DNA of 10,680 nt, from IMG/VR virus record IMGVR_UViG_2778261697_000006. One strand, given 5' to 3'. A program made the translations under genes and the position numbers. The notes under the pieces were generated by a model, which was given only the letters and a program-made list of their open reading frames with translations, was not told the origin of the DNA and did not search any database. Below are positions 1 to 10,680 of this stretch, piece after piece; positions within the stretch are counted from its first letter, which is position 1, and each line of letters opens with the position of its first letter. Source of the DNA: a virus. Lineage: Duplodnaviria > Heunggongvirae > Uroviricota > Caudoviricetes.

Positions 1-360
1 ATGAGAATGACCAGCCGCAAAAAAGAGATACTTAGCTACTTTGAACCGGATAACCTCGAATGGGTGACAGGTGAGATTGGTGCGCCGCCGTTCGATGTGT
101 CGGGTGTGGCCTACCTGCTTCATGGCATGGTGTCGTTCGATAAGCGCCACCAGATCGAATCAACCCGGCGCACACTGGAAAGCATGGTTGCTGGTGGACT
201 GCTTGAGCGGGTGACAGTGTATGAATCGCGCCAGATACGGCGCGGCGGTGAAACTAACGCTACGGTCGTGCGCTACGGTTTACCCGGTCAGTGCGCTGTT
301 ATGCGCGATACTGGCGGCGCTGATAACGCAATATCAGGTGAATACATGCGGGTCAGTTAA
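1..360 (+). CDS. Hypothetical protein (119 aa), family not recognised
   Basis: ORF from ATG at base 1 to stop at 358-360; protein-like, non-repetitive composition. Its 3' end overlaps the convergent 353..895 gene by 8 nt. The true 5' end could lie upstream of the window. Confidence 0.45.
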   Translation: MRMTSRKKEILSYFEPDNLEWVTGEIGAPPFDVSGVAYLLHGMVSFDKRHQIESTRRTLESMVAGGLLERVTVYESRQIRRGGETNATVVRYGLPGQCAVMRDTGGADNAISGEYMRVS

Positions 361-895
361 TAGCCTGCAATCTGTCGTTGATGCGGCTCAGGTCGTAAAC
401 CCGGCGTTCAATATCCAGCATCAGGAAATTGTGGATCTCGGCCTGCTCAGGATTATCAGACTCTCTGGCCTGTAATAGCAATTCATTGTAACCATGCAAG
501 CCGCCTGAGTTTTCCGCCGGGGTTGTGCCTTTCCCACGCAGGCAGCTAATGGGCTGATTACTCGTATCGTGTGTTTGCTTCTCCAGCACAATGACGCAAT
601 CCCACCAGTCGCCAAAGTCATACGTGTAAACCAGCTTGTCCCCCTCATTCTGGAGCGCCGCCCATAGTGGCGTGATTGCCGCGTTACCCATGCTTTCATC
701 CTCACCCCATACGCGATACTCGCTACCTGGATCACCTTTACGCCCTTTCTCGAACATATACAGGTGTTCGTCATTCCAGCCAAAAGCTAACTGGATCACG
801 GCATGAAGTTTACTAAAGGGGATTTGCTCTGGAACCAGCACACGCCGCCATATAGGTGGTTTGCTGTCTCGGATGGTTATCTTTAGCTGGTACAT
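353..895 (-). CDS. pRiA4b ORF-3-like family protein (180 aa), function unknown
   Basis: N-terminus YQLKITIRDSKPPIWRRVLVPEQIPFSKLHAVIQLAFGWNDEHLYMF matches my recollection of the PF07929 pattern (YxLKI..L...PPIWRR..VP....L.LH..IQ.AFGW...HL..F). Weak AGGA-like SD about 5 nt before the ATG at 893-895; AT-rich putative promoter region 896-1015. Confidence 0.65.
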   Translation of the reverse strand: MYQLKITIRDSKPPIWRRVLVPEQIPFSKLHAVIQLAFGWNDEHLYMFEKGRKGDPGSEYRVWGEDESMGNAAITPLWAALQNEGDKLVYTYDFGDWWDCVIVLEKQTHDTSNQPISCLRGKGTTPAENSGGLHGYNELLLQARESDNPEQAEIHNFLMLDIERRVYDLSRINDRLQAIN

Positions 896-1015
896 GCAAA
901 TCCTGAATAAATGCGAATCGGAAGGATAACGATACTGACGTACTCACAATTCTGTAAAGGTGAATAAAGGAAATTTGCTTAATACGCATAAGTTACATGT
1001 GGAATAATCCCATAT

Positions 1016-1201
1016 CTACCTGCGCGGCGCTGGCTTCTTCCACTGGTAGGCAGGTGCTCGCATCATTTCGCGGAACCTGTCGCGCCGGGCTATATCGGCA
1101 TTAACTGAGCGTTCTATCTCCCGTTGATCTGCCTGTGTAAGCTGGTGGCCTCCGTGCTCAAGTTTGGCGATGGTCAATAAGGCTATTTCGCGTGGTGTCA
1201 T
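1016..1201 (-). CDS. Hypothetical small protein (61 aa)
   Basis: ATG at 1199-1201 preceded by a GAGGG SD-like motif (AGAGGGTATGACGT-ATG); charged, helical-looking sequence. No family recognised; short ORF, so uncertain. Confidence 0.4.
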   Translation of the reverse strand: MTPREIALLTIAKLEHGGHQLTQADQREIERSVNADIARRDRFREMMRAPAYQWKKPAPRR

Positions 1202-1335
1202 ACGTCATACCCTCTGGAAGGATGAAACACGCCCGGATTAAATTTCATTTTTCGCGGGTATGAAAAAACGATGGGGCGGGCAGTCCCGGACAGTCAGGGC
1301 TGTAGAGATTTGACTACCCCCTCCCCGCTGGTGGT

Positions 1336-1617
1336 CTACCTTTGCCTATTGCCGCCATTTAACCGGAAGGCGTTACCGTTCGGTTGCGCTATCCCCATGC
1401 GGTGTTGCGTTTCGGTAACAGCTTTATGCAGGTCGCCAAAGTCCTCAACCTTCACGGGCGGGCGCTTCACGTTCTCCAGACACGTTTCACGGCGGCGCTT
1501 TATCCATTCCCGATCATCGTCCTCGGTGCATAACAGCATGACTTCCATCCATCGCGCTGCGGCGCGTCGGTACAGCCCTTTTGCTTCCAGATCCTCGGCT
1601 TTACTGTCGTTTACCAT
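1336..1617 (-). CDS. PerC-family transcriptional activator-like protein (93 aa)
   Basis: N-terminal AEDLEAKGLYRRAAARWMEVM matches the LE.KGL.RRAA.RW motif I associate with PerC/Pch-type small regulators. GGGGGAGA SD about 6 nt before the ATG at 1615-1617; a TATAAT hexamer on the minus strand (1683-1688) upstream. Confidence 0.6.
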   Translation of the reverse strand: MVNDSKAEDLEAKGLYRRAAARWMEVMLLCTEDDDREWIKRRRETCLENVKRPPVKVEDFGDLHKAVTETQHRMGIAQPNGNAFRLNGGNRQR

Positions 1618-1830
1618 GTTTATCTCCCCCAGAATGGCGTTTCATCGTCGAATGGTGGGCGTTGGTCAAAATCATCAGGGGTATTATATAACTCCTATCC
1701 CGGCGCGGATTGTGTTGCGTGGCCTCCTGTGTGCCTGTAGCCTGGCTGATTCCGGTAATACTGCGGAGTTAGGTATACCGGCATAGCTTACCCGTGGAGA
1801 AATGAATCATCGAATGAGTTTGGTCTGGAG

Positions 1831-2502
1831 TTATTCCACCAGCAAAAATGGCGTTGCCCGGTCTATGACGTTGATGCCAATTAACGAGCTAACATTTCGA
1901 CCATTCACAATGCTATCCCGTTCAAGCAAATGCGCTATTTTTTCTACTTCATACCAGTATTGAGACATGAGGGCTTTGGTCTTTTCAACGAGTTTAGAAA
2001 GCATTAACTCCCTGTTAATTCGCTTATCTGTAGCGCAGATTAAATCGAGCATGTCATTTACGTTAGCCATGTCATAGCGATGAGGTAGCGAATACTTTTT
2101 GTTGAAAATATCGTTGTTTTCGTAAAGGGCTTCGCTTACTGGTCCGGCGAGGGATACAAAAGCGGCCTTTTTTGCATCGCGCTTTATACCATCCGCATAG
2201 TAACGTATGAAAGGGATAACTTTACCATTCTGCCCAACTACACCAGATTTACTATCCCGCAAACGCCCTAGATCGTGGCTGTGAATTATGCTGTGTTTAA
2301 CAACACCCAAACACTTGGCCTCATGTACATGTTCGCCAGCAACGTAACCGTATTCATCCATAACGGCGATAACCTGTATATCTAAGCGAATAAGCCATGC
2401 AGCTACTGCATGTCCCGCTTCGTGGAATGCTACACATCGTTTACCATCACCTATCCAGTTATAGAACATTTCATGCTCATATATCTGGTGAATGGCGCCC
2501 AT
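1831..2502 (-). CDS. Putative zinc metallopeptidase (223 aa) with HEAGH motif
   Basis: FHEAGHAVAAWLI near the N-terminus is an HExxH zinc-binding motif in an FtsH/M41-like context (HEAGHA). Start ATG at 2500-2502 overlaps the stop of the upstream small ORF (TAATG), indicating translational coupling. Visibly AT-richer than flanking genes. Confidence 0.7.
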   Translation of the reverse strand: MGAIHQIYEHEMFYNWIGDGKRCVAFHEAGHAVAAWLIRLDIQVIAVMDEYGYVAGEHVHEAKCLGVVKHSIIHSHDLGRLRDSKSGVVGQNGKVIPFIRYYADGIKRDAKKAAFVSLAGPVSEALYENNDIFNKKYSLPHRYDMANVNDMLDLICATDKRINRELMLSKLVEKTKALMSQYWYEVEKIAHLLERDSIVNGRNVSSLIGINVIDRATPFLLVE

Positions 2503-2675
2503 TACGCGCCCTCGCTTGCCAGTGAGGCCAGCGCCTTATCCATTAATCCCCGAGCAATTTCGTGGATCGTTGGCGCAACTCCTACCTCTGATTTTTTACG
2601 CTGCTCCTCCTGAATTTTCTTTATCGCTTCCATTTGCTTCTCACTTATCAATACCGGCTTTACTGAAATAGCCAT
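2502..2675 (-). CDS. Small ribbon-helix-helix-like protein (57 aa), first gene of a two-gene operon with the metallopeptidase
   Basis: ATG at 2673-2675 preceded by AAGGGG 4 nt upstream; the ORF-track extension to 2702 begins with TTG and lacks an SD, so I prefer the internal ATG. MAISVKPVLISEKQMEAIKKIQEE looks like a beta-strand followed by a helix (RHH/Arc/CopG-like). Stop overlaps the start of 1831..2502. Confidence 0.5.
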   Translation of the reverse strand: MAISVKPVLISEKQMEAIKKIQEEQRKKSEVGVAPTIHEIARGLMDKALASLASEGA

Positions 2676-2699
2676 AACGCCCCTTAGAACTGTATAAAA

Positions 2700-2745
2700 C
2701 AACAGTTATTATAGTTTCACAAATAGCAATATTTATCACCGTAAT
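2700..2745 (-). promoter_or_regulatory. Candidate sigma70-type promoter for the RHH-metallopeptidase operon
   Basis: Perfect TATAAT on the minus strand (plus 2708-2713) about 33 nt upstream of the ATG at 2675; only a weak -35 (ATAAAT at 17-nt spacing). AT-rich context. Confidence 0.3.
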
Positions 2746-2769
2746 TGCAAAATATGAAACAAATAGCAC

Positions 2770-2801
2770 AAAAAAATGCCGCCGCTCAGTAGCTGGTGGC
2801 A
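2770..2801 (-). terminator. Candidate intrinsic terminator ending the primase transcript
   Basis: Minus-strand transcript UGCCACCAGCUACUGAGCGGCGGCA forms a GC-rich imperfect hairpin (about 8 bp with one mismatch and one bulge) followed immediately by seven U (plus-strand A-run 2770-2776). The U-tract is on the minus strand only. Confidence 0.35.
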
Positions 2802-2811
2802 TCGTTCTGTG

Positions 2812-2826
2812 TGTCAAGTTTTGACA
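2812..2826. promoter_or_regulatory. Perfect palindrome TGTCAA-gtt-TTGACA, operator-like site
   Basis: 6-bp inverted repeat with 3-bp spacer read directly from the sequence. Half-sites equal the -35 consensus but no matching -10 lies at 16-18 bp on either strand, so I read it as a protein-binding site rather than a promoter. Confidence 0.3.
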
Positions 2827-2842
2827 AGTTTCGTTTTAAGCT

Positions 2843-2871
2843 CACCCCCCCATAGAATCTTTTTGGGGGTG
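2843..2871. other. GC-clamped hairpin / inverted repeat flanking the iteron array
   Basis: CACCCCC ... GGGGGTG 7-bp inverted repeat with a 15-nt loop; no U-tract follows on either strand, so not called a terminator. Confidence 0.3.
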
Positions 2872-2873
2872 TA

Positions 2874-3127
2874 ATATCCCTACCAATCCCTACTAACTGG
2901 CTCATGCCACGAATGGCAAGGCTTTCAGACTGGTAGGCATTCAATTTTGTTGCCCTACATAACCCTACTTATCCCTACTAAATCACTTCAACGGCATTTT
3001 ACTGCCTGTTTTATTTGGTAGGGATATGTAGGGATAAGTAGGGATAAAAATATATATCCCTACCTAGTTTAAAGCCTTGCTACGTCTGGCCTCGTCTCGT
3101 TTTTAGTAGGGCAGTAGGGATAAGTGC
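2874..3127. repeat. Iteron array, putative origin of replication (ori/crr-like)
   Basis: At least 10 copies of GTAGGGATA or its complement TATCCCTAC. Reverse copies at about 2875, 2886, 2952, 2962, 2971 and 3055; forward copies at 3019, 3028, 3038 and 3114, plus degenerate copies at 3106 and 2931. An AT-rich core (ATAAAAATATATAT, 3044-3057) sits between inverted copies. Lies immediately 3' of the primase gene, as P4 crr does relative to alpha. Confidence 0.75.
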
Positions 3128-3140
3128 CGCCGTAAAAGTT

Positions 3141-5582
3141 TCAATCATCACTCTGCCCGCTCTCCACACCGTAAGCGCGTGGCATGAACTCCTCAGCCTT
3201 CTCGTTATAGCCAACGTTGGTTTGCGCTCTGCCGTTAATGCTTCTCGTCAGGTAGCTGGCTCGGTACTCTTTTGCTGCTGATTTTATGGCGCGTGAAAAC
3301 TTATTGACGGAAAGCGGTTTACCCAGGCCGTGATACTCCATAAACGCCAGATAAAGATGATAAAGATATGTCCTCGGCTCTGGCTGGCCTGCCCATGTAC
3401 CTCCGCCCATCATCATGCCTTTGGGTTCGTTCATGAAAAAAAGCGCCGCACACATATCGACAACCGGATCTGTGCCGCGTTTAACCTCTAGCGCCTCCTG
3501 CGAATCGCGCTGCTCTAGTAATAGAGCCTTTGCTTTGTTCTGGTCGGCAAAGGTGGTTAGCAGGTGGCGGATAATCACCGGGATTTCTCGCCTGATTTTT
3601 GCGGTTAAATCCGGGTCTTTGTCTGCGTCTGATACCGGGTTATTAAACGGGAATATCACGCGGCGGCGGGCAATGCCCCCGTTTCGCTCCGTGAATGTCA
3701 TCGGCTCGTTATTGGTTGCCATAACAACGGCATTTATCACGGTTGTGAACTGCTTTTCATATTTCCCATCAATCTCTACCGGATCGCCGCCCGTAATGGC
3801 TTTAATCCCCGCACCCTCTCCAACGTAGCGGGTCTGGTCAGGCATAATAATCAGGCTTTTCCCTACGAACTGCGCCCGTCCCCGTGCGGTGTCCAGCGTC
3901 ATCATGCTACCGCTGGCGGTGTTGTGTTCACCTGCCAGCGTGGTTGCTATGCTGCTGAATACGGATTTCCCACTGCCGCCCTCGCCAGTTATCTCAATGA
4001 ATAGCTGCCAGTCGTGACGCTTCGCCAGCACCATAAACAAGGCTGCTTTGATACGCTCGGCCTTATGATGGTCGCCAGCCGTTGCATGATTCAGCCAACG
4101 GGTAAAATTGGGGGCGCTGGTGGTAATATTTTCCCCCGGCGCTGGCGGGGTGTAGGTGATCCCATTGTGGTTCATCAGCCAGTTACCCGGCGAATGGGCG
4201 GAAAACGTCTGCGTAGCGAGGTCATAAACGCCGTTATCAAAACCAATCAGATCCCCGCTCCGCTCACCAATTACCGGTATTTGCAGCTTCATGGTTGCGA
4301 CAACCGATTTAATCCCCTTTTCGGTGTAGTGGGCTTCGTGCTCGTCGAAAATTGCCACCATAACCCTTTCTAATTCGCTGTCTGGTAGCTTCACCCATAC
4401 GCCAGATTCGTAGCAGTAAACAGTGCCACTATCAGGGTTAACCGCCAACATATCCCATCGAGATGAAAGCAACCGCGCTTTCTGGCTGGCTGCCATTTGT
4501 GCAATATCTCCGACTTCGGCTTTACGGCGGGATTTACCGCCCGCAATGGCCTGTAGTTGTGGTTTCACGGCTTCCCCCTGAATCTGGTACATCGAATCGT
4601 TAAACGCAGCCGTAGCGACTTCCAGCCCGTTTTGCTGGCGGTAGTCGTCCCAGTCGGCTTTGTAGTCTGTCGGCGGCAGCGCCACCCAGCCAGCCACGGA
4701 TAAGGCGGCTTTCTCTGCGGCATCTTTGCCCGTGTTCGCCTGTTCGTCCTGCTGGTGGTCGTTATCTGCGGCAATGATAATTTGCGACTGCGGGTGTTTC
4801 CGGCGCATTACTCTGGCAACGTGGATCAGGTTCCCGGCGTCAATTGCCGCCACTGTAAGCGCGTCCGGGCGCATCAGGTGAACGGACAGGGCCGTCGCCA
4901 GCCCCTCGGCAATTAATACGCTCTGCGGCTGTTCTGGTGCGTTTACGGCGCGATATGCCCCGCGCTTTGCTGAACCTGTCAGGAGTCGCTTCTCTCCCTG
5001 CGGTGTAATGGTTTGCGCTGCTGCCACTGCGCCGGATTCGTCCACCAGCTCCAGCAATAACGAACCATCCGGCATAACCGGATAGTTAAACCCGGTCAGC
5101 CCTTTTGATTGCAGGTAATCAGATTCTCCCTGTGTGGCACTCTGGCGCATTCCGGCATACAGACGGGCAAACGTAGCCCTTCGCTGCTCTGCATCCTCTG
5201 CTGCCTGTTTCTGGCGCTCCTGCTCACGCTGCTGGCGGTCAGCTTCCAGTTGCTCTCTTCTATGGCTCGCTGCCACCGGGTCGGTTTCCGCTGCCCGGTA
5301 ATCAATACCCAGCACATCAGCGGCAAGCTGTGCCGCCTCCGTAGTGTCGCAGTTGTTCACCTTCTTAATCAGGTCTAAACCGTCACCAGCGCCACACTGA
5401 TTGCAGATAAAGCTACCGCGCCCGTTGTCGTCGAATCTGAAACGGTCTTTTCCACCACATGCAGGGCATGGAGAATGGCGGCGCGATGAATCAGGCACGT
5501 CGATAGACAATCCAGCCAGCACATAAGGCCAGCGCCCGGCGGCGGCACTGGTCACTTCGCGGATAAGGTCGATATTACGCAT
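3141..5582 (-). CDS. P4-alpha-like primase-helicase (813 aa): Zn-ribbon + TOPRIM primase + D5/P4-type NTPase
   Basis: CPACGG...CNQCG zinc-ribbon near the N-terminus; TOPRIM motifs LIAEGLATA (cf. P4 alpha/DnaG EGYATA) and IIIAADNDHQQDE; Walker A ITGEGGSGKS around nt 3963-3986. Strong AGGAGG SD 5 nt before the ATG at 5580-5582. Start overlaps the stop of the upstream 113-aa ORF by 8 nt. Confidence 0.9.
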   Translation of the reverse strand: MRNIDLIREVTSAAAGRWPYVLAGLSIDVPDSSRRHSPCPACGGKDRFRFDDNGRGSFICNQCGAGDGLDLIKKVNNCDTTEAAQLAADVLGIDYRAAETDPVAASHRREQLEADRQQREQERQKQAAEDAEQRRATFARLYAGMRQSATQGESDYLQSKGLTGFNYPVMPDGSLLLELVDESGAVAAAQTITPQGEKRLLTGSAKRGAYRAVNAPEQPQSVLIAEGLATALSVHLMRPDALTVAAIDAGNLIHVARVMRRKHPQSQIIIAADNDHQQDEQANTGKDAAEKAALSVAGWVALPPTDYKADWDDYRQQNGLEVATAAFNDSMYQIQGEAVKPQLQAIAGGKSRRKAEVGDIAQMAASQKARLLSSRWDMLAVNPDSGTVYCYESGVWVKLPDSELERVMVAIFDEHEAHYTEKGIKSVVATMKLQIPVIGERSGDLIGFDNGVYDLATQTFSAHSPGNWLMNHNGITYTPPAPGENITTSAPNFTRWLNHATAGDHHKAERIKAALFMVLAKRHDWQLFIEITGEGGSGKSVFSSIATTLAGEHNTASGSMMTLDTARGRAQFVGKSLIIMPDQTRYVGEGAGIKAITGGDPVEIDGKYEKQFTTVINAVVMATNNEPMTFTERNGGIARRRVIFPFNNPVSDADKDPDLTAKIRREIPVIIRHLLTTFADQNKAKALLLEQRDSQEALEVKRGTDPVVDMCAALFFMNEPKGMMMGGGTWAGQPEPRTYLYHLYLAFMEYHGLGKPLSVNKFSRAIKSAAKEYRASYLTRSINGRAQTNVGYNEKAEEFMPRAYGVESGQSDD

Positions 5583-5916
5583 GGTTGCCTCCTGCCACGG
5601 TCGCGCCCATGTCTTTAACCATGCTTTGCCATATCTCGCGCCCGACGTCAGTCAATCCGTCCTTAGTGACGCAACGCTCAAGAAGCTCGACCCCCACGGT
5701 TTCCCACTGCGGGTAGGACACTTTCATGGCTGCCAGTGTGTAGCTATCGATCAGGCTGCGAACGCCTTTTACTCCATTGACGATTTCCACACGGATTTGC
5801 TGGCCTGCCGCGTCAACCATGAAGTAATTGCCACCATTGATAGCCGTAATGTGGTTATACAGTGCCGTCGCATACTTATTCGCCAGCGCATTCAGTCGGA
5901 AATTTTTAGTAATCAT
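5575..5916 (-). CDS. Hypothetical protein (113 aa), in operon with the primase
   Basis: ATG at 5914-5916 preceded by GAGGGGG; 3' end overlaps the primase start by 8 nt. No family recognised. Confidence 0.55.
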   Translation of the reverse strand: MITKNFRLNALANKYATALYNHITAINGGNYFMVDAAGQQIRVEIVNGVKGVRSLIDSYTLAAMKVSYPQWETVGVELLERCVTKDGLTDVGREIWQSMVKDMGATVAGGNHA

Positions 5917-5970
5917 GTCGCCCCCTCAGTGCGCCAGCGGCATTTCCCGATTTAATGGTCGGTGCGTTGC

Positions 5971-6234
5971 TCATGCGCTGCCCTCCGCATCAATTCTGGC
6001 TATATCGACAATCGTCAGGACTTTACTCAGCCAGCAATACACGATTTCGGCCTGTTCATCGTTTAGTTGAGTGGCTAAATCAGTCATAACGTGAGCCAGC
6101 CCATTGCGGGCGCGGGTCATGCGTTCTGCTGTTCGGTCTGCCAGCGTAAAATCATCCGGGTATGATTCTTTGCGAGATAGCATCGCTTCGGCTTCCAGCT
6201 CTGCCGGGTGGCGGTAGATGGTAGTTATGTTCAT
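5971..6234 (-). CDS. Hypothetical protein (87 aa)
   Basis: ATGA start/stop overlap with the upstream 104-aa ORF; GGGAGGG SD-like motif upstream. No family recognised. Confidence 0.5.
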   Translation of the reverse strand: MNITTIYRHPAELEAEAMLSRKESYPDDFTLADRTAERMTRARNGLAHVMTDLATQLNDEQAEIVYCWLSKVLTIVDIARIDAEGSA

Positions 6235-6545
6235 TTGCCCGCCCTCCCTTTGGCTTCTTTTTCACTGATTGAGCGCAAGAATGCGGCGTTTGCAGCGCTA
6301 TCGTTCAGCGCCCGCGCAACTTCTCCGATATGTCCCAGCATTGCGCCTAATCTGTACATATCAGCCTTAGCGCTTTCCTCCGGGTAGCCATCGCTACCAG
6401 CCGCCCAGAACATGAGGCTACCAATGGCACTTACGCCCAGCATTAAATCATCCACGGCATCACTGGCGCAGCTCTCAATTCCTTTCAGATCATCAGGTGT
6501 ACAACCATCAAATTTGCAGGACACTAAATCGTTATACATGCTCAT
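6231..6545 (-). CDS. Hypothetical protein (104 aa)
   Basis: ATG at 6543-6545 preceded by GAGGTGG; ATGA overlap with the ORF upstream and with the 87-aa ORF downstream. No family recognised. Confidence 0.5.
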   Translation of the reverse strand: MSMYNDLVSCKFDGCTPDDLKGIESCASDAVDDLMLGVSAIGSLMFWAAGSDGYPEESAKADMYRLGAMLGHIGEVARALNDSAANAAFLRSISEKEAKGRAGK

Positions 6546-6721
6546 GCTGCCACCTCACGAATGCGGGTAATCTGGATGTGGGAAAGGCGTTCATTTCTGG
6601 CCTGATCTAGCGCCTCAGCTTTGGCGCTGATCGCGCTGCGGGCGTCAACGATATAAACGAACTCGACTAATTCTCCGCTCCGGGCGGTGGCGCATCCTGC
6701 AACACGGAAGTAATTAAGCAT
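6542..6721 (-). CDS. Hypothetical small protein (59 aa), coupled to the 312-aa gene
   Basis: Internal ATG at 6719-6721 of the 138-aa track ORF, 2 nt upstream of the 312-aa stop (TAA 6714-6716), preceded by GGGGG. The remaining N-terminal 79 codons of the track ORF (6722..6958) overlap the 312-aa gene and look like a low-complexity off-frame (L/P/R-rich). Confidence 0.35.
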   Translation of the reverse strand: MLNYFRVAGCATARSGELVEFVYIVDARSAISAKAEALDQARNERLSHIQITRIREVAA

Positions 6722-7652
6722 GTGCGCCCCCTGTGCGAATACGTCCGGCAAAAAAGCAAACGTGATCCCGCGCCAGAATGCGGCGGGCTTCCTGCTCAGT
6801 CTCTGCGGCGATATGGTGAATTTTGGCGGTAATTGTCGGCATATCGCGGCGAACTGCGGCGATAATCCAGATAAATTGCGGTTTTTGGGTAGGGGTAGTA
6901 GCCAGCATAGCGGCAGCCTCTGATTCATGGTTTTGAGAACCACCACCGGAAACGCCAATTTCGCTGGTGGTGAACTGTACAGGGTTGGCGTAACCGGGAA
7001 TCAGAGAAACCGGCGCGGATTGCTCCGCCCCCATACAGTCCACCATTGAACAGGTGTAACTGCGCGGCACAAAAAAACACGCATGGCGCGTGTTGTGCGC
7101 TCTGATAATTACCGGGACGCCAATCCCGACACCAGATTTTGCTGGTGCGCTATAACCATAAACCGGGTTGGCGATAGTCGGCAAGCTCTTTTTTATGGAC
7201 TCCGAAAACTCACCTTCTCGCGTAACGACCCCTAGTAAATCTTCCAGCGCACGCGTATTTGTCGAGAAAGTCGATGTGGAACGGTTCACAACGGTAGCAA
7301 TCCAGTTCATACCACCAGCCAGCAGGGGGAATTTATTCCCCACAATCAGCTTTTTAGAGGTGATTATTTCTTGGTTTAAAATGTCATCATTTGTCGTCAT
7401 TCCCCGTGCGTGGATGTCAGGTTTTGTGAGGTTCAGGCTAAGTTTTGCTAAGTCATTAACCATAACAATTGATAACAGGCAGCCGTTCGCGACCTTTGGT
7501 TTTATAAGGTTGTAAGGGTTAACATTTGTTAACAGGCTAGCCAGATTAAAGGCTTCTTTCTGGGCGGCAAATTCATTACCGTTAATTGTTCCCTGATAGG
7601 CGTTCAGATGAGGGGCGGCCTCAGAAATTAATCTGCTTTTTTCGATGTTCAT
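6714..7652 (-). CDS. Hypothetical protein (312 aa), satellite-specific, function unknown
   Basis: Long ORF with a GAGG SD 6 nt before the ATG at 7650-7652, only 11 nt after the stop of the 144-aa ORF. Protein-like composition; no catalytic motif recognised. Confidence 0.6.
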   Translation of the reverse strand: MNIEKSRLISEAAPHLNAYQGTINGNEFAAQKEAFNLASLLTNVNPYNLIKPKVANGCLLSIVMVNDLAKLSLNLTKPDIHARGMTTNDDILNQEIITSKKLIVGNKFPLLAGGMNWIATVVNRSTSTFSTNTRALEDLLGVVTREGEFSESIKKSLPTIANPVYGYSAPAKSGVGIGVPVIIRAHNTRHACFFVPRSYTCSMVDCMGAEQSAPVSLIPGYANPVQFTTSEIGVSGGGSQNHESEAAAMLATTPTQKPQFIWIIAAVRRDMPTITAKIHHIAAETEQEARRILARDHVCFFAGRIRTGGAHA

Positions 7653-7663
7653 TTTCAGCCTCG

Positions 7664-8098
7664 TTAGGCGGCGGTGAGATTGTCCGGGTATAGATTGAGA
7701 ATGTCGGCAATTTCAGGTTGAGAAAGTCCCTGATAGCCGCCAGCGTCGGCGTTATGGTTCACAAGCCTAATAACTTTTAGAACGTCACCGCGCCCGGTAA
7801 AGCGATAGCGTAAATGTGACCCTATCCCGTCGGGGTTCTTTTCGTCTATACGCTCAAGCTGAATATCAAGCCTGCGCTCTAACTCACTGGCGTAGTTCCT
7901 TCCAGACGAAAGGCGGCAATAACGCAGAATGTCGTTTTCTGTCCATCCCTCTACGCCAGTACGCAGCATATAGACGCGGGCGCGGTGTTTCTTTGGGGTT
8001 CGCTTAGGTACTTGTACCGGGCTGGTGGTCGGCGTAATATCAGACGTGCGAATATCTGAGTTAGCCGCCTGCTGTACGGGGCGGTTTTTCTTTTTCAT
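7664..8098 (-). CDS. Hypothetical protein (144 aa) with basic N-terminal tail
   Basis: ATG at 8096-8098 overlaps the alpA-like stop (TAATG), preceded by AAGGTGG. N-terminus K/R/P-rich (MKKKNRPVQQ...PKRTPKKHRAR). No family recognised. Confidence 0.55.
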   Translation of the reverse strand: MKKKNRPVQQAANSDIRTSDITPTTSPVQVPKRTPKKHRARVYMLRTGVEGWTENDILRYCRLSSGRNYASELERRLDIQLERIDEKNPDGIGSHLRYRFTGRGDVLKVIRLVNHNADAGGYQGLSQPEIADILNLYPDNLTAA

Positions 8099-8385
8099 TA
8101 CGCCACCTTTCCCCGGCGCTCCGCCAGCCAGTTATTAATCTCTACCGCATCAAAGGCGGTCACGTTATCGGTGAGTTTTACCGGGCGCGGCAGTGTGCCG
8201 TTTTTAACCCAGCGATCGATAGTTGGCATGGATACACCCAGAAGTTCCGGCATGCGGAAACGACGGATGTATCCTGTTGTTGGGATAGCGGAGATTGCCG
8301 CTTGATGTGCTGTCATATGTCCTGTAACTCCTGTGATAGCTGATGAAGTTACGGTAATCATGTGATCAAGGGGGTTAGATGTCAT
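8098..8385 (-). CDS. alpA: AlpA-family phage regulatory / excisionase-like DNA-binding protein (95 aa as longest ORF; true start may be internal)
   Basis: C-terminal half YIRRFRMPELLGVSMPTIDRWVKNGTLPRPVKLTDNVTAFDAVEINNWLAER resembles the AlpA HTH core. The first ATG (8383-8385) has no SD; an internal ATG at 8314-8316 has AGGAG about 11 nt upstream, so the N-terminus is uncertain. Confidence 0.7.
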   Translation of the reverse strand: MTSNPLDHMITVTSSAITGVTGHMTAHQAAISAIPTTGYIRRFRMPELLGVSMPTIDRWVKNGTLPRPVKLTDNVTAFDAVEINNWLAERRGKVA

Positions 8386-8421
8386 CGCAACGAAAAATGG
8401 ATTTTCGCTGCGAAACTATCC

Positions 8422-9318
8422 TCATGATTTAAAAGATTTATTAGCCGATGAGAAATATTCATCCAGTAAGCGGGGACTTAACTTTAAACCTACATCCAGC
8501 ATTTCTGCCTTGAGGGCGTCTTGTGTCCACCTTTTAGAGGTTGGTTCAGCTTTTTTTAAAGCTTTCAGCATTGAACCTATCACTAATAAGCTTTCGTTTA
8601 AGGTCAAATCGCCATCGTCTCTTCCAAGCGATTGCTGCTCAAACTTCTCAATATTCTCGCGCCTAAAAATAAACTCAACATCTCCCAATCCGTCGGCAGG
8701 ATAAAAGAATCTATGGTGATTATCAAAATCAACCTTTTCACCTGTCACGCTGTCACAATAAGCCAACACATCATCATTCATTCTCTTAAACTCAAGAGGG
8801 TTGAAACTCTCCATAATGTTATAGAGTTCTCCCCCGCTGAGCACGAAAGCACCCTCGGTATTCACAAACTCCCTCGGATTTCTGCCTTGCTTAATGTCGA
8901 ATAAGTGCATGACATCAAGCTCCTCGCTCCCCAGCAGAGGGCAAGGCAAGTCATAAATGTCATGTCTCAACCTAACGACTGCCCCCTCCCTTTTGATAGT
9001 TTCATATTCAAAATCCAACTCTGCATTTGTAAAAAACCTTACGTCATTTAGAAGCGAGGAGAATGCTCCTTCACTTGTCGTTTCCGTTATGGTGCGCGAG
9101 AACAATTCTCTTTTAGAGGTTGTAACGATTTTTGCTTTAACTGCATACCTAGAGTCGGATAAGAGAATAGATATTGTTATATGACCATCTAAAGCCAATT
9201 GAAGGCAATCAACCTCACTTATTTCCTCTCCAAAAGAAACAGTAAGTCTTTTGGCTGCCTCATTTAATGTTAACCACTCTTTTAGTTTAAAAAGCTTTTT
9301 CACTGCGTCACCTTTCAC
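8422..9318 (-). CDS. Hypothetical protein (298 aa), AT-rich cargo gene between int and alpA; possible N-terminal HTH
   Basis: Long ORF with no ATG in the first ~137 codons: starts at GTG 9316-9318 (AAGG 6 nt upstream) or GTG 9301-9303 (AAGGTG 5 nt upstream). Markedly AT-richer than flanks by eye. N-terminal WLTLNEAAKRLTVSFGEEISEV has a helix-turn-helix-like pattern. No enzymatic motif recognised. Confidence 0.6.
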   Translation of the reverse strand: MKGDAVKKLFKLKEWLTLNEAAKRLTVSFGEEISEVDCLQLALDGHITISILLSDSRYAVKAKIVTTSKRELFSRTITETTSEGAFSSLLNDVRFFTNAELDFEYETIKREGAVVRLRHDIYDLPCPLLGSEELDVMHLFDIKQGRNPREFVNTEGAFVLSGGELYNIMESFNPLEFKRMNDDVLAYCDSVTGEKVDFDNHHRFFYPADGLGDVEFIFRRENIEKFEQQSLGRDDGDLTLNESLLVIGSMLKALKKAEPTSKRWTQDALKAEMLDVGLKLSPRLLDEYFSSANKSFKS

Positions 9319-9335
9319 GCTACGCCTTAATGAGC

Positions 9336-9391
9336 GATTGAGTCAGGCGGTAAGGCTTCCCGCTTTTCGCCCCGTCGAGCTAGACTCAATC
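9336..9391. repeat. 9-bp perfect inverted repeat GATTGAGTC / GACTCAATC separated by 38 bp, in the int - 298-aa gene intergenic region
   Basis: Read directly: 9336-9344 and 9383-9391 are reverse complements. Lies just 3' of the int stop and upstream of the 298-aa gene. Confidence 0.35.
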
Positions 9392-9420
9392 TGTCCGTTA
9401 ATTCTGGTTACTAATCGTGG

Positions 9421-10680
9421 TTACTTCGCCTTTCTCAATGGCGTCACGTTGTATTCTTCGCCGCGTTCCAGAGCCACCAGCAAATCACACCACTGCGCCA
9501 GCGCCGCTTTACGCTCATCAAAATACTGGTGACGGTTATAGATACCCTCCACGCCTTTAATTTTGTGGTTGAGGCATCTTTCAGCCACTACGGGATCAAC
9601 GCCCAGCGCGGCTAAATGGGTGCGGGCTGTGCGCCGGAAGTCGTGAATAGTGAAATTCGGCACGTCCGACATTTCAGCGCGAACCTTAGCCAGTGCTACG
9701 GGTAAAGTGCTTTCCTGAATATGTGGGATCATTCTGTTTTGCATCTTCCTGGCTGGAAGCACCCATGCGCTGTTGCATGAGAACGTTTTAAGCTCTCTCA
9801 GCCATTCGACGGCTGGCGGTGCTAATGGAATGTCTATAGCGTCGCCGTTTTTGCTGCGTTCCTCTGGTAAATGCCATACGGCTTTATCAAAATCGAACTC
9901 CTCCCAGCGGGCGGCGCATAACTCCATTTTGCGGACGCATAACGCTAACAGTAATTTGAACGTGATTTCGTTCTGGCGACTGAATCCCTTAGCCGTGCGC
10001 ATGGCTTTGAATAGCTGGATTAACTCATCGCGGGTTAACCAGCGGTCGCGGGAAACTTCTTTCCCTCCGGCGTCTGCCACCTCAAAGGCTGAACATGGGT
10101 TAATCTCCAGCGCGTGCCGTTTGATTCCGTAGTCGAATATGCGGCGCGTCCATCTCAGCACGTCCGTTGCTATGGTCGGCGCTCCACGGTCAACAATACC
10201 TTTCAGCATGTCATCGATATGGCGCGGCTTCACGTCCTCCACCTTCATGTTGCCAATGCAGGGGTTTATATCTTTGTCGATACGGCGGCGGAGTATATCG
10301 GGGTGCTTCCAGCGCGGGAGGATCTGACGCTCAAAGTATTCAGCGGCAAGCTCTGAAACGCGCATAGCGTTCTTCTCTGCTTCCATCTTCGCCAGTGCTT
10401 CGGCTTTCCGTTCCTGCTTCTCTCCTGCAACGTCATAGCCCAACGCAACGCGAGCCGATAGCTCTTTGGCTGTCTCTCTGGCCTTTGATAGTGATAGCTC
10501 GGCATATGAGCCGATAACCATTGCTCGCTGCTTACCTGCGAATTTATAGCGAAAGCGCCAGAAAGGGACTGTGTAGTTTTTGGGGTAGCAAATATAAAGG
10601 CCGTTGCCATCGGCCCTTCCTTCAAATCTATCTCCGGCCTTTATCCATGCGCGGATCTGCATGTCTGTAATCTTTGGCAT
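9421..10680 (-). CDS. int: P4-type tyrosine integrase / site-specific recombinase (419 aa)
   Basis: N-terminus ITDMQIRAWIKAGDRFEGRADGNGLYICYPKNYTVPFWRFRYKFAGKQRAMVIGSYAELSLSKARE matches the arm-binding domain pattern of P4-family integrases; C-terminus has HDFRRTARTHLAALG and LNHKIKGVEGIYNRHQY (H-x-x-R box and catalytic Tyr region). Start codon ATG at 10678-10680, the window edge. Confidence 0.9.
   Translation of the reverse strand: MPKITDMQIRAWIKAGDRFEGRADGNGLYICYPKNYTVPFWRFRYKFAGKQRAMVIGSYAELSLSKARETAKELSARVALGYDVAGEKQERKAEALAKMEAEKNAMRVSELAAEYFERQILPRWKHPDILRRRIDKDINPCIGNMKVEDVKPRHIDDMLKGIVDRGAPTIATDVLRWTRRIFDYGIKRHALEINPCSAFEVADAGGKEVSRDRWLTRDELIQLFKAMRTAKGFSRQNEITFKLLLALCVRKMELCAARWEEFDFDKAVWHLPEERSKNGDAIDIPLAPPAVEWLRELKTFSCNSAWVLPARKMQNRMIPHIQESTLPVALAKVRAEMSDVPNFTIHDFRRTARTHLAALGVDPVVAERCLNHKIKGVEGIYNRHQYFDERKAALAQWCDLLVALERGEEYNVTPLRKAK

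Follow-up and report, generated by a model that had tools for sequence, protein, structure and literature searches.

Results

An island at the 3' end of yicC

The DNA stretch analyzed here, hereafter called the window, is 10,680 bp long (IMG/VR record IMGVR_UViG_2778261697_000006) and carries most of a putative phage satellite of the phage-inducible chromosomal island (PICI) type, inserted at the 3' end of Escherichia coli yicC, between yicC and dinD. The window is 100% identical to the reverse complement of positions 10001-20680 in E. coli contig JATAOE010000010.1 (GCA_036915295.1). Because the island measures ~11,092 bp, the window represents ~96% of it. Position 1 is the start codon of a plus-strand open reading frame (ORF), and position 10680 is the integrase start codon. 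Fifteen of the 16 ORFs scored as genes lie on the minus strand, the sole exception being the convergent orf119. The arrangement proposed in the initial annotation, a satellite body with co-oriented int, alpA, and primase-helicase genes, iterons 3' of the last of these, and then accessory genes, was found in full on the minus strand.

The boundaries of the island were set by comparison with the empty site of strain K-12, in which yicC is joined to dinD. The empty site (attB), located in the last codons of yicC, reads CAGATTCAGAACATCGAATAA. In the source contig, attL (CAGATTCAGAATATCGAGTAA) was found 190-210 bp past window position 10680, and attR (CAGATTCAATATTGAATAA) was found 204-222 bp ahead of window position 1. 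These repeats, each ~200 bp outside the window, are imperfect, ~20 bp long, and derived from the 3' end of yicC, the stop codon of which is restored by the inserted island. The parts of the island outside the window (~190-210 bp on the int side and ~204-222 bp on the far side) contain the att repeats and are gene-free. Arm-type repeats, (A/G)TGTACA, occur four times in the outer end on the int side and twice in that on the far side. The initial annotation would have been abandoned had structural phage genes been found just beyond the window or had att direct repeats been absent. Here, the flanks proved to be host DNA: yicC, rph, and pyrE lie beyond the int end, and beyond the far end, dinD is reached after an ISL3 element. 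Both repeats were located, including the one expected at the far end. A tRNA or other target had been anticipated next to int; the target does adjoin int, but it is the 3' end of yicC and not a tRNA, and no tRNA was found in the window.

The int gene (positions 9421-10680, minus strand) encodes a P4-type tyrosine integrase of 419 amino acids (aa) with an arm-binding domain, as indicated by matches to Pfam Arm-DNA-bind_3, Phage_int_M, and Phage_integrase and to phrog_1, together with HDFRR and C-terminal Y motifs. At the aa level, it is 92% identical to the integrase of a circular sister island (NZ_CP148430.1) and 88% identical to that of EcCIRM13514. Int adjoins yicC in all six contigs encoding it and is specific for the yicC 3' end. 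Its clade was found in 382 of 5,426 complete E. coli genomes. The same target is used by EcCIRM13514 (yicC-dinD) and CfCIP10159 (yicC-yicG), the att cores of which (GAGCAGATTCAA and ATCGAGTAAG, respectively) overlap that of the window island within ...GAGCAGATTCAGAATATCGAGTAA. As reported previously, yicC-dinD is a PICI attC, and both EcCIRM13514 and CfCIP10159 are catalogued as PICIs (Fillol-Salom 2018, Table S1; PMC6092414). Both islands share with the window the layout of int, alpA, pri, ori, and PerC and a size of ~11-12 kb, whereas EcCIRM13514 differs in having a different, shorter primase, GGTGAACA iterons, and SSB and ProQ/FinO cargo.

Variation was also seen next to attR. An ISL3-family element (ISKox3) lies between attR and dinD in the source strain (contig positions 20904-21260) and in strain PK6 (6291-7606). 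The sister island of strain 600029 has an extra dinD-like (Bro-N) gene between attR and orf119, which results in two adjacent dinD copies (2930-4000).

Excised forms of related islands

The sister island with the 92% identical Int was found in two forms in one finished assembly: integrated at yicC (NZ_CP148427.1:2339714-2351886) and as a 12,152-bp circle with attP (NZ_CP148430.1). The circle was deposited as a "plasmid," and an identical copy is still chromosomal in that strain. The attP of the circle is composed of the far-side arm repeats, a 21-bp yicC core, and the int-side arm repeats. In addition, the NRZ14408 assembly contains a permuted PerC-attP-int record, "phage_14408_2." Among island copies at one site, the cargo slots vary. 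As a side observation, an internal stop is annotated in the chromosomal primase copy of the circular sister but not in the copy on the circle.

For EcCIMP1 of E. coli MP1, excision was reported only with the helper phage vB_EcoP_Kapi1, both alpA and int were needed, and transduction was specific (PMC11773190). The dependence on a helper phage that the initial annotation ascribed to the window island would thus rest on the EcCIMP1 experiments and on the sister-island circle; the identity of the helper and the packaging route are likewise inferred.

The int-alpA region

The spacer after int contains an int-alpA RNA motif (Rfam RF02996; 9324-9390, minus strand), which scored 60 bits in cmscan against a gathering score of 35.8. 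The motif is also present in the island of strain PK6; no match was obtained in EcCIMP1, EcCIRM13514, or the prototype Gram-negative PICI, EcCICFT073. It is followed by a conserved int-adjacent gene (8422-9303, minus strand), the product of which has 293 aa from a GTG at 9303 (the mechanical ORF extends to 9318) and combines an N-terminal Xis/AlpA/MerR-type winged helix-turn-helix (HTH) with a beta-rich domain. This gene belongs to an unnamed conserved family (~293 aa) with relatives at L089:8001-8897 and L088:8001-8888. The order of int, an intervening gene, and alpA is also kept in a Pseudomonas island with different replication genes and GmrSD/HNH cargo.

The alpA gene (8098-8316, minus strand) encodes a 72-aa regulator of the AlpA/Vis family (PF05930, E value of 3.7e-6, above the gathering score). 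The ORF can be extended to 8385; alpA is annotated as 72 aa in six of six related contigs. A candidate sigma-70 promoter was predicted from a promoter-like site at 8357-8385. Coupled to alpA by an ATGA overlap is orf144 (7664-8098, minus strand), with 78% aa identity to the gene in the equivalent position of EcCIMP1. No family match was found for orf144 in Pfam, PHROGs, and PADLOC scans; it is a conserved alpA partner in EcCIMP1-like islands.

A putative C4/isrK RNA switch related to P4 immunity

The interval between alpA and the primase gene contains isrK, C4, and c4-a1b1 RNAs, which, like the int-alpA RNA motif, were absent from the initial annotation. An isrK/seqA-like leader RNA is located at 7072-7161 (minus strand), with an Rfam isrK match at 7072-7148 (81 bits; gathering threshold [GA], 50) and a c4-a1b1 match at 7109-7161 (45.1 bits, just below the GA of 46.7). 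Directly upstream, a candidate promoter, TTGCCG-18-TATGGT, was read by eye. By complementarity, the leader contains C4 target set 1, consisting of AUUGGCGU at 7124-7117 and AUCAGAG at 7106-7100, and a terminator scan detected a hairpin with a U-run at 7094-7072. A C4 antisense immunity RNA of the P4 CI type lies at 6963-7050 (minus strand; Rfam C4, 76.7 bits; GA, 45). It has an element-specific a' hairpin loop, CUCUGAUUC, and a single-stranded b' segment, ACGCCAA, both of which are complementary to two target sets. Target set 2 and a 64-aa Icd-like ORF (ATG at 6908 to stop at 6714; NCBIfam phage_ICD_like, E value of 2e-19) occupy 6714-6959 (minus strand). In this set, AUUGGCGU is found at 6959-6952, and AAUCAGAGG at 6925-6917 overlaps the Shine-Dalgarno sequence of the Icd-like ORF. 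The Icd-like ORF shows 84% aa identity to a separately annotated Icd-like protein of EcCIMP1 and is homologous to the C-terminal part of the P4 "cI ORF137." In P4 (CI) and P1 (c4, immI), target pairing causes premature termination.

Seven C4 elements were compared: those of the window, EcCIMP1, the circular sister, the PK6 island, the lambdoid phages Ayreon and 2H10, and P4 (cI and leader regions). All seven matched the Rfam pair of C4 and isrK, and their consensus C4 fold has 28 pairs, 12 of which show compensatory changes. The a' loop differs in each of the seven elements, and both target sets co-vary with it. The a' specificity is not shared even by the PK6 island, whose identity to the window is otherwise 98%. 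Thus, the immunity cassette is swapped as a unit. No match to C4 or isrK at the gathering threshold was obtained in EcCICFT073 or EcCIRM13514. Mageeney et al. had already pointed out in 2023 that RNAs of the C4/isrK type occur in the Gram-negative PICI "Bro zone" (PMC10111431). The C4/isrK stretch is the only region with DNA-level similarity to phages (77-84% identity). C4 cross-immunity with the immI of a helper phage was considered and rejected: because the a' recognition loops all differ, direct cross talk with phages similar in C4/isrK is unlikely.

A mechanically called "Ash/Icd-like" ORF of 312 aa (6714-7652, minus strand) runs across this region. The part of it matched by Pfam Phage_ASH, aa 166-259, is encoded at nucleotides (nt) ~7157-6876, where isrK and C4 lie. 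Variable sites of the C4 stretch are spread evenly across codon positions (18/29, 20/29, and 20/30), with no third-position bias. The N-terminal ~158 aa (7179-7652), for which no family matches were found, form a variable "Bro-zone" segment, and the remainder is a read-through of the RNA genes that ends in the Icd-like ORF. A single 312-aa protein was therefore rejected as the primary reading, since the Pfam match falls on RNA genes, third-codon bias is absent, and EcCIMP1 has a 38-nt insertion there; translation across the region may still occur. As the Phage_ASH match coincides with the isrK/C4 genes and no codon-position bias is seen, the "Ash domain" or "Ash family protein" at this locus is probably translated RNA sequence.

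The replication module

The primase gene (3141-5582, minus strand) encodes an 813-aa primase-helicase-initiator of the P4 alpha type, with matches to Zn_Ribbon_Prim, Toprim_3, D5_N, DUF5906, and Pox_D5 and to TIGR01613 ("P4 family") above the cut-off. Among the proteins of the phage collection, P4 alpha matches it best, with 38% identity over aa 7-803 (98% of the length; E value of 1e-160). Compared with the Pri protein of EcCICFT073, 55% identity was found over the C-terminal 441 aa.

A field of iterons (2874-3125, assigned to neither strand) begins 16 bp after the primase stop codon and contains 11 copies of the core (TAT)CCCTAC. For CCCTAC/GTAGGG, 11 copies in 276 nt compare with 0.09 expected from shuffles (maximum, 2), and 11 of the 13 copies in the whole window fall in this field. 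The iterons are present in both orientations, mostly in a 10-bp register, around a tract of 75% A+T at 3045-3056. Their position is that of the PICI ori and of P4 crr, and the field is the predicted replication origin. As expected for a cognate initiator-origin pair, the iterons differ from one initiator allele to the next: ATCCCTAC (eight copies) accompanies the 813-aa initiator of the window, CCTGTACCA (seven copies) a 780-aa initiator, TGAACCAAC (six copies) the DUF927 initiator of EcCIMP1 and the circular sister, GGTAGAYA that of EcCICFT073, and GGTGAACA that of EcCIRM13514. The EcCIRM13514 field (9054-9546) has nine copies of a sequence identical to the type I iteron of P4 crr (4291-4590), despite its shorter "DNA primase family protein."

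After the predicted origin, a conserved noncoding stretch (2676-2831, minus strand) contains two 10-bp direct repeats, AACTTGWCAM, and a terminator-like T-run hairpin, followed by the region upstream of orf57. Together with orf57, it forms a conserved ~300-bp stretch (2527-2831) that matches EcCIMP1 and the circular sister NZ_CP148430.1 at 92-97% identity. The adjoining primases, in contrast, show an identity of just ~73% or are unrelated, and the cargo farther downstream is also different. Positions 2527-2831 could be a cis-acting site.

Upstream of the primase gene, four small ORFs of the early operon are present on the minus strand: orf59 (6542-6721), orf104 (6231-6545), orf87 (5971-6234), and orf113 (5575-5916), the last of which overlaps the primase start and has 88% aa identity to an EcCIMP1 gene. 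They matched only PHROGs of unknown function (phrog_6805 and phrog_37628). No PDB sequence match was found, and hence there is no Rpp homologue among them by sequence.

Comparison with known satellites

As the initial annotation had stated, capsid, tail, and lysis genes are missing: no family match to any of them was found in Pfam, PHROGs, and NCBIfam, and the same was true for terminase. The capsid, portal, head-tail connector/adaptor, and TerL genes of cf-PICIs were not detected with Pfam and PHROGs. The island otherwise has the features by which Gram-negative PICIs are defined (PMC6092414), namely, a terminal int with a specific attC and direct repeats, an AlpA-family regulator downstream of int, unidirectional transcription, pri-rep followed by a predicted ori of two iteron sets around an A+T-rich tract, and a size within ~8-15 kb (11,092 bp) with no structural or lysis genes. 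The packaging/interference module of that definition (TerS, cos with Rpp, or capsid-morphogenesis genes) is not present.

With P4, the window shares, with order and strand conserved, a P4-type integrase, a Vis/AlpA regulator (recognized as AlpA by Pfam only), and an alpha primase-helicase followed by iterons (crr in P4). The likeness extends to an isrK-type leader (the P4 seqA region) and a C4-type RNA (CI), with putative seqA-like and seqC-like targets upstream of the replication operon, the second over the Shine-Dalgarno sequence of a small MATT/MLATT ORF. Of 14 P4 proteins used in tblastn, matches were obtained only for Int (25%), alpha (38.5%), and the historic "cI ORF137." Sid, Delta, Psu, and Epsilon gave no tblastn match at an E value of ≤0.01, and there was no Psu or Ogr/Delta Pfam match. 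Also missing from the window are orf151, orf106, gop/beta/cII, and a P2-type cos. Unlike P4, the window has no second ori region, and its iteron sequence and att target are different. Of the P4-like core used by SatelliteFinder (int, alpA/vis, alpha, epsilon, sid, delta, and psu), three of seven components are present; the lack of Sid, Delta, Psu, Epsilon, and a P2-type cos places the island outside the P4-like family as SatelliteFinder defines it. The label "P4/PICI-like" used in the initial annotation is nevertheless apt, with an early, immunity, and replication half homologous to P4 and the P4 late half (sid, delta, psu, and cos) missing.

EcCIMP1 resembles the window in int, alpA-orf144, a Bro/Ash zone with isrK, C4, and an Icd-like ORF, the small ORFs, the primase gene, and the iterons, followed by an orf57-like gene, cargo, PerC, orf61, pRiA4b-ORF3, and orf119. 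In contrast, its Int is only 28% identical and targets tRNA-Thr, its AlpA allele is 28% identical, its C4 a'/b' specificity differs, and its primase is of the TOPRIM-DUF927 type with TGAACCAAC iterons, whereas the window has the P4 alpha type with ATCCCTAC iterons. At 20 kb, EcCIMP1 also carries P22-like ejection genes, DUF2824 genes, and a second alpA, instead of which the window has an M41-like pair and the int-adjacent HTH gene. EcCICFT073, whose helpers are lambda and phi80, is like the window in int, alpA, an Icd-like gene, small ORFs, pri, an iteron ori, and PerC (48% identical), as well as in unidirectional transcription and a size of ~11 kb. Its att site (ycfD-phoQ) differs, and its major-capsid-protein homologue, head-decoration gene, cos sites, and Rpp-mediated packaging redirection have no equivalent in the window.

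Cargo genes

In the slot after the predicted origin, orf57 (2502-2675, minus strand), with 81% aa identity to its EcCIMP1 counterpart, overlaps a gene (1831-2502, minus strand) for a stand-alone FtsH/M41-like metalloprotease of 223 aa with an HEAGH motif and a weak Pfam M41 match. For the AlphaFold2 model of the latter (predicted local distance difference test score of 75), the top Foldseek matches were all FtsH or m-AAA protease domains (E value of 2e-4; TM score of ~0.5). The modeled fold resembles that of an FtsH protease domain, and the AAA+ module is missing. The family to which the protein belongs, named "peptidase M41 family protein," is narrow and restricted to Enterobacterales. The slot (1831-2675) is variable, with sister islands carrying SSB or a 76-aa plus 245-aa pair instead; the slot downstream of pri/ori is a recognized PICI accessory region (PMC11364771). 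The orf57/M41-like pair is a candidate for a defense or toxin pair of an undescribed type; PADLOC gave no defense-system model match for any cargo or function-unknown protein of the window. An Arc/Mnt-like ribbon-helix-helix character of orf57 was a sequence impression only, found no Pfam or PDB support, and is not claimed.

The PerC-family regulator (1336-1617, minus strand; 93 aa; PF06069, E value of 1e-29) has 92.5% aa identity to EcCIMP1_025, which silenced LEE1 expression in Citrobacter rodentium (PMC11773190). PerC is listed among PICI accessory genes (Fillol-Salom 2018; PMC6092414). Farther along are orf61 (1016-1201, minus strand) and a gene for a pRiA4b ORF-3-family protein (353-895, minus strand; PF07929, E value of 1e-42), both 100% identical to EcCIMP1 proteins. 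The only PDB match of the latter was the uncharacterized 2i1s "hypothetical protein" (E value of 3e-21). The convergent orf119 (1-360, plus strand) overlaps the pRiA4b-ORF3 gene by 8 bp and is 97.5% identical to an EcCIMP1 protein. At the DNA level, positions 1-1331 are 98.9% identical to the end of EcCIMP1. The M41-like pair, PerC, orf61, pRiA4b-ORF3, and orf119 are exchangeable cargo, and the stretch from int through the iterons is the core.

Discussion

We consider it likely that the window is the body of an intact PICI-type satellite of ~11.1 kb at the 3' end of yicC, with a P4-related early operon as its core. In the quiescent state, short transcripts from a constitutive promoter just upstream of isrK would yield the C4-like RNA, whose a' and b' segments would pair with set 1 in the leader and with set 2, located over the Icd-like Shine-Dalgarno sequence. 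Translation would then be blocked, and premature termination, as in P4 and P1 immI, would keep the primase operon off. During the lytic cycle of a helper, alpA may be switched on, as in EcCICFT073 and EcCIMP1, whereupon AlpA would activate its own expression and drive transcription of the operon, overriding the C4-like RNA. Int, with AlpA as a directionality or activating factor, would excise the island at the yicC core, the alpha-type protein would bind its allele-specific iterons and replicate the circle, and island DNA would be packaged in helper capsids.

Several results weigh against this conclusion. No TerS gene, Rpp gene (by sequence), or capsid-morphogenesis gene was found in the window, and the P22-like ejection and DUF2824 genes, which the authors of the EcCIMP1 study regarded as packaging candidates, are absent from it. 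For the lambda/phi80 cosN, there was one 2-mismatch match, inside the primase gene and no better than chance. The P2/P4 cos sequence GGCGAGGCGGGGAAAGCAC had no match at ≤3 mismatches in the window; the ~200-bp outer ends were only read, with no formal scan. According to the rules of SatelliteFinder, three of five PICI core components are present, and the lack of a packaging/hijack module makes the island a "Type C" PICI. As for excision, the attP predicted for the exact window variant had 0 matches when IMG/VR and JGI metagenome contigs were scanned for exact patterns, and a 402-bp synthetic attP, searched by megablast against the 5,426 E. coli genomes, was matched only as separate halves, in 79 genomes. 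Among the 75 IMG/VR loci with primase relatives, the close ones begin at int and resemble provirus cut-outs rather than virion DNA and thus provide no evidence of encapsidation. Finally, the promoters, C4-mediated termination, AlpA induction, and ori function in the scheme above are inferred by homology.

"Type C" PICIs were treated by the SatelliteFinder authors as possibly defective or as another kind of element and were set aside as uncertain (PMC10085698). EcCIMP1, a proven PICI, is also "Type C" by the same rules. The comparisons support the view that the window element belongs with the EcCIMP1-like "Type C" PICIs and not with the P4 family, its early operon being P4-related.

The same gaps would fit a domesticated or decaying remnant of a P4-like element or PICI that has lost its late and packaging functions and persists as a vertically inherited cargo carrier with no mobilization by phage. 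The absence of any recognizable packaging or hijacking gene or cos site from the window, the incomplete core sets (three of five for PICIs and three of seven for P4), the failure to find a circular form of the exact variant in viral contigs, metagenome contigs, and the E. coli genomes, and the ISL3 element adjoining the island all point in this direction. However, all core ORFs, both att repeats, and the arm repeats are intact. The Int clade occupies one site in hundreds of genomes, where the immunity loop, the primase/iteron pair, and the cargo are exchanged module by module, which argues for ongoing horizontal flow. In addition, a sister that also lacks recognizable head, terminase, and cos functions was captured as an excised circle, and the "Type C" EcCIMP1 has been mobilized experimentally. 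We therefore regard decay as an unlikely explanation. It is even less probable that "satellite" is a misnomer for an integrative element able to live as an autonomous plasmid (the plasmid mode of P4) and moving mainly by other routes, such as generalized or lateral transduction or conjugative mobilization. In favor of this reading, the island has a complete alpha-type initiator with iterons, like P4, which is capable of plasmid replication; a finished assembly lists the sister island as a "plasmid"; and packaging determinants were not found in the window. Nevertheless, no match to relaxase, oriT-associated, partition, or copy-control families was found in Pfam or NCBIfam, and the strain bearing the circle also has an integrated copy, which fits spontaneous or phage-induced excision. 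Moreover, EcCIMP1 forms circles only with its helper, and its transfer is helper specific and not generalized transduction (PMC11773190).

C4/isrK RNAs are known also in lambdoid phages, and together with the phage-type integrase, the AlpA/Xis-like regulator, and the primase, they could in principle mark the left arm of a larger, complete prophage with structural genes just outside the window. This can be given almost no weight: host genes lie directly past both att sites in the source contig and in six related contigs, the island is 11.1 kb in total, and the empty K-12 site joins yicC to dinD. A PICI-type satellite thus remains the preferred explanation. A tentative and rather improbable extension of it is that the "Type C" EcCIMP1 group is a minimal P4-derived lineage without any capsid- or terminase-hijacking protein, in which helper sensing and immunity both depend on the element-specific C4/CI RNA and AlpA, and a cis-acting site serves for packaging. 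If this were true, positions 2527-2831 of the window would be one candidate packaging site, and many database entries named "Ash family protein" (PF10554) would represent isrK/C4 RNA genes in translation.

The novelty of these findings is low, with PICIs at yicC-dinD known since 2018, C4/isrK in Gram-negative PICIs since 2023, and the EcCIMP1 type since 2025. Their value lies in the correct framing of the remaining window genes as core or exchangeable cargo. The early operon is nearer to P4 in "Type C" PICIs than in the prototype EcCICFT073. In general, the island offers a clean example that "Type C" PICIs, which are excluded from conservative satellite counts, are organized, intact, and modular and swap their immunity-RNA specificity and primase/iteron pairs as units.

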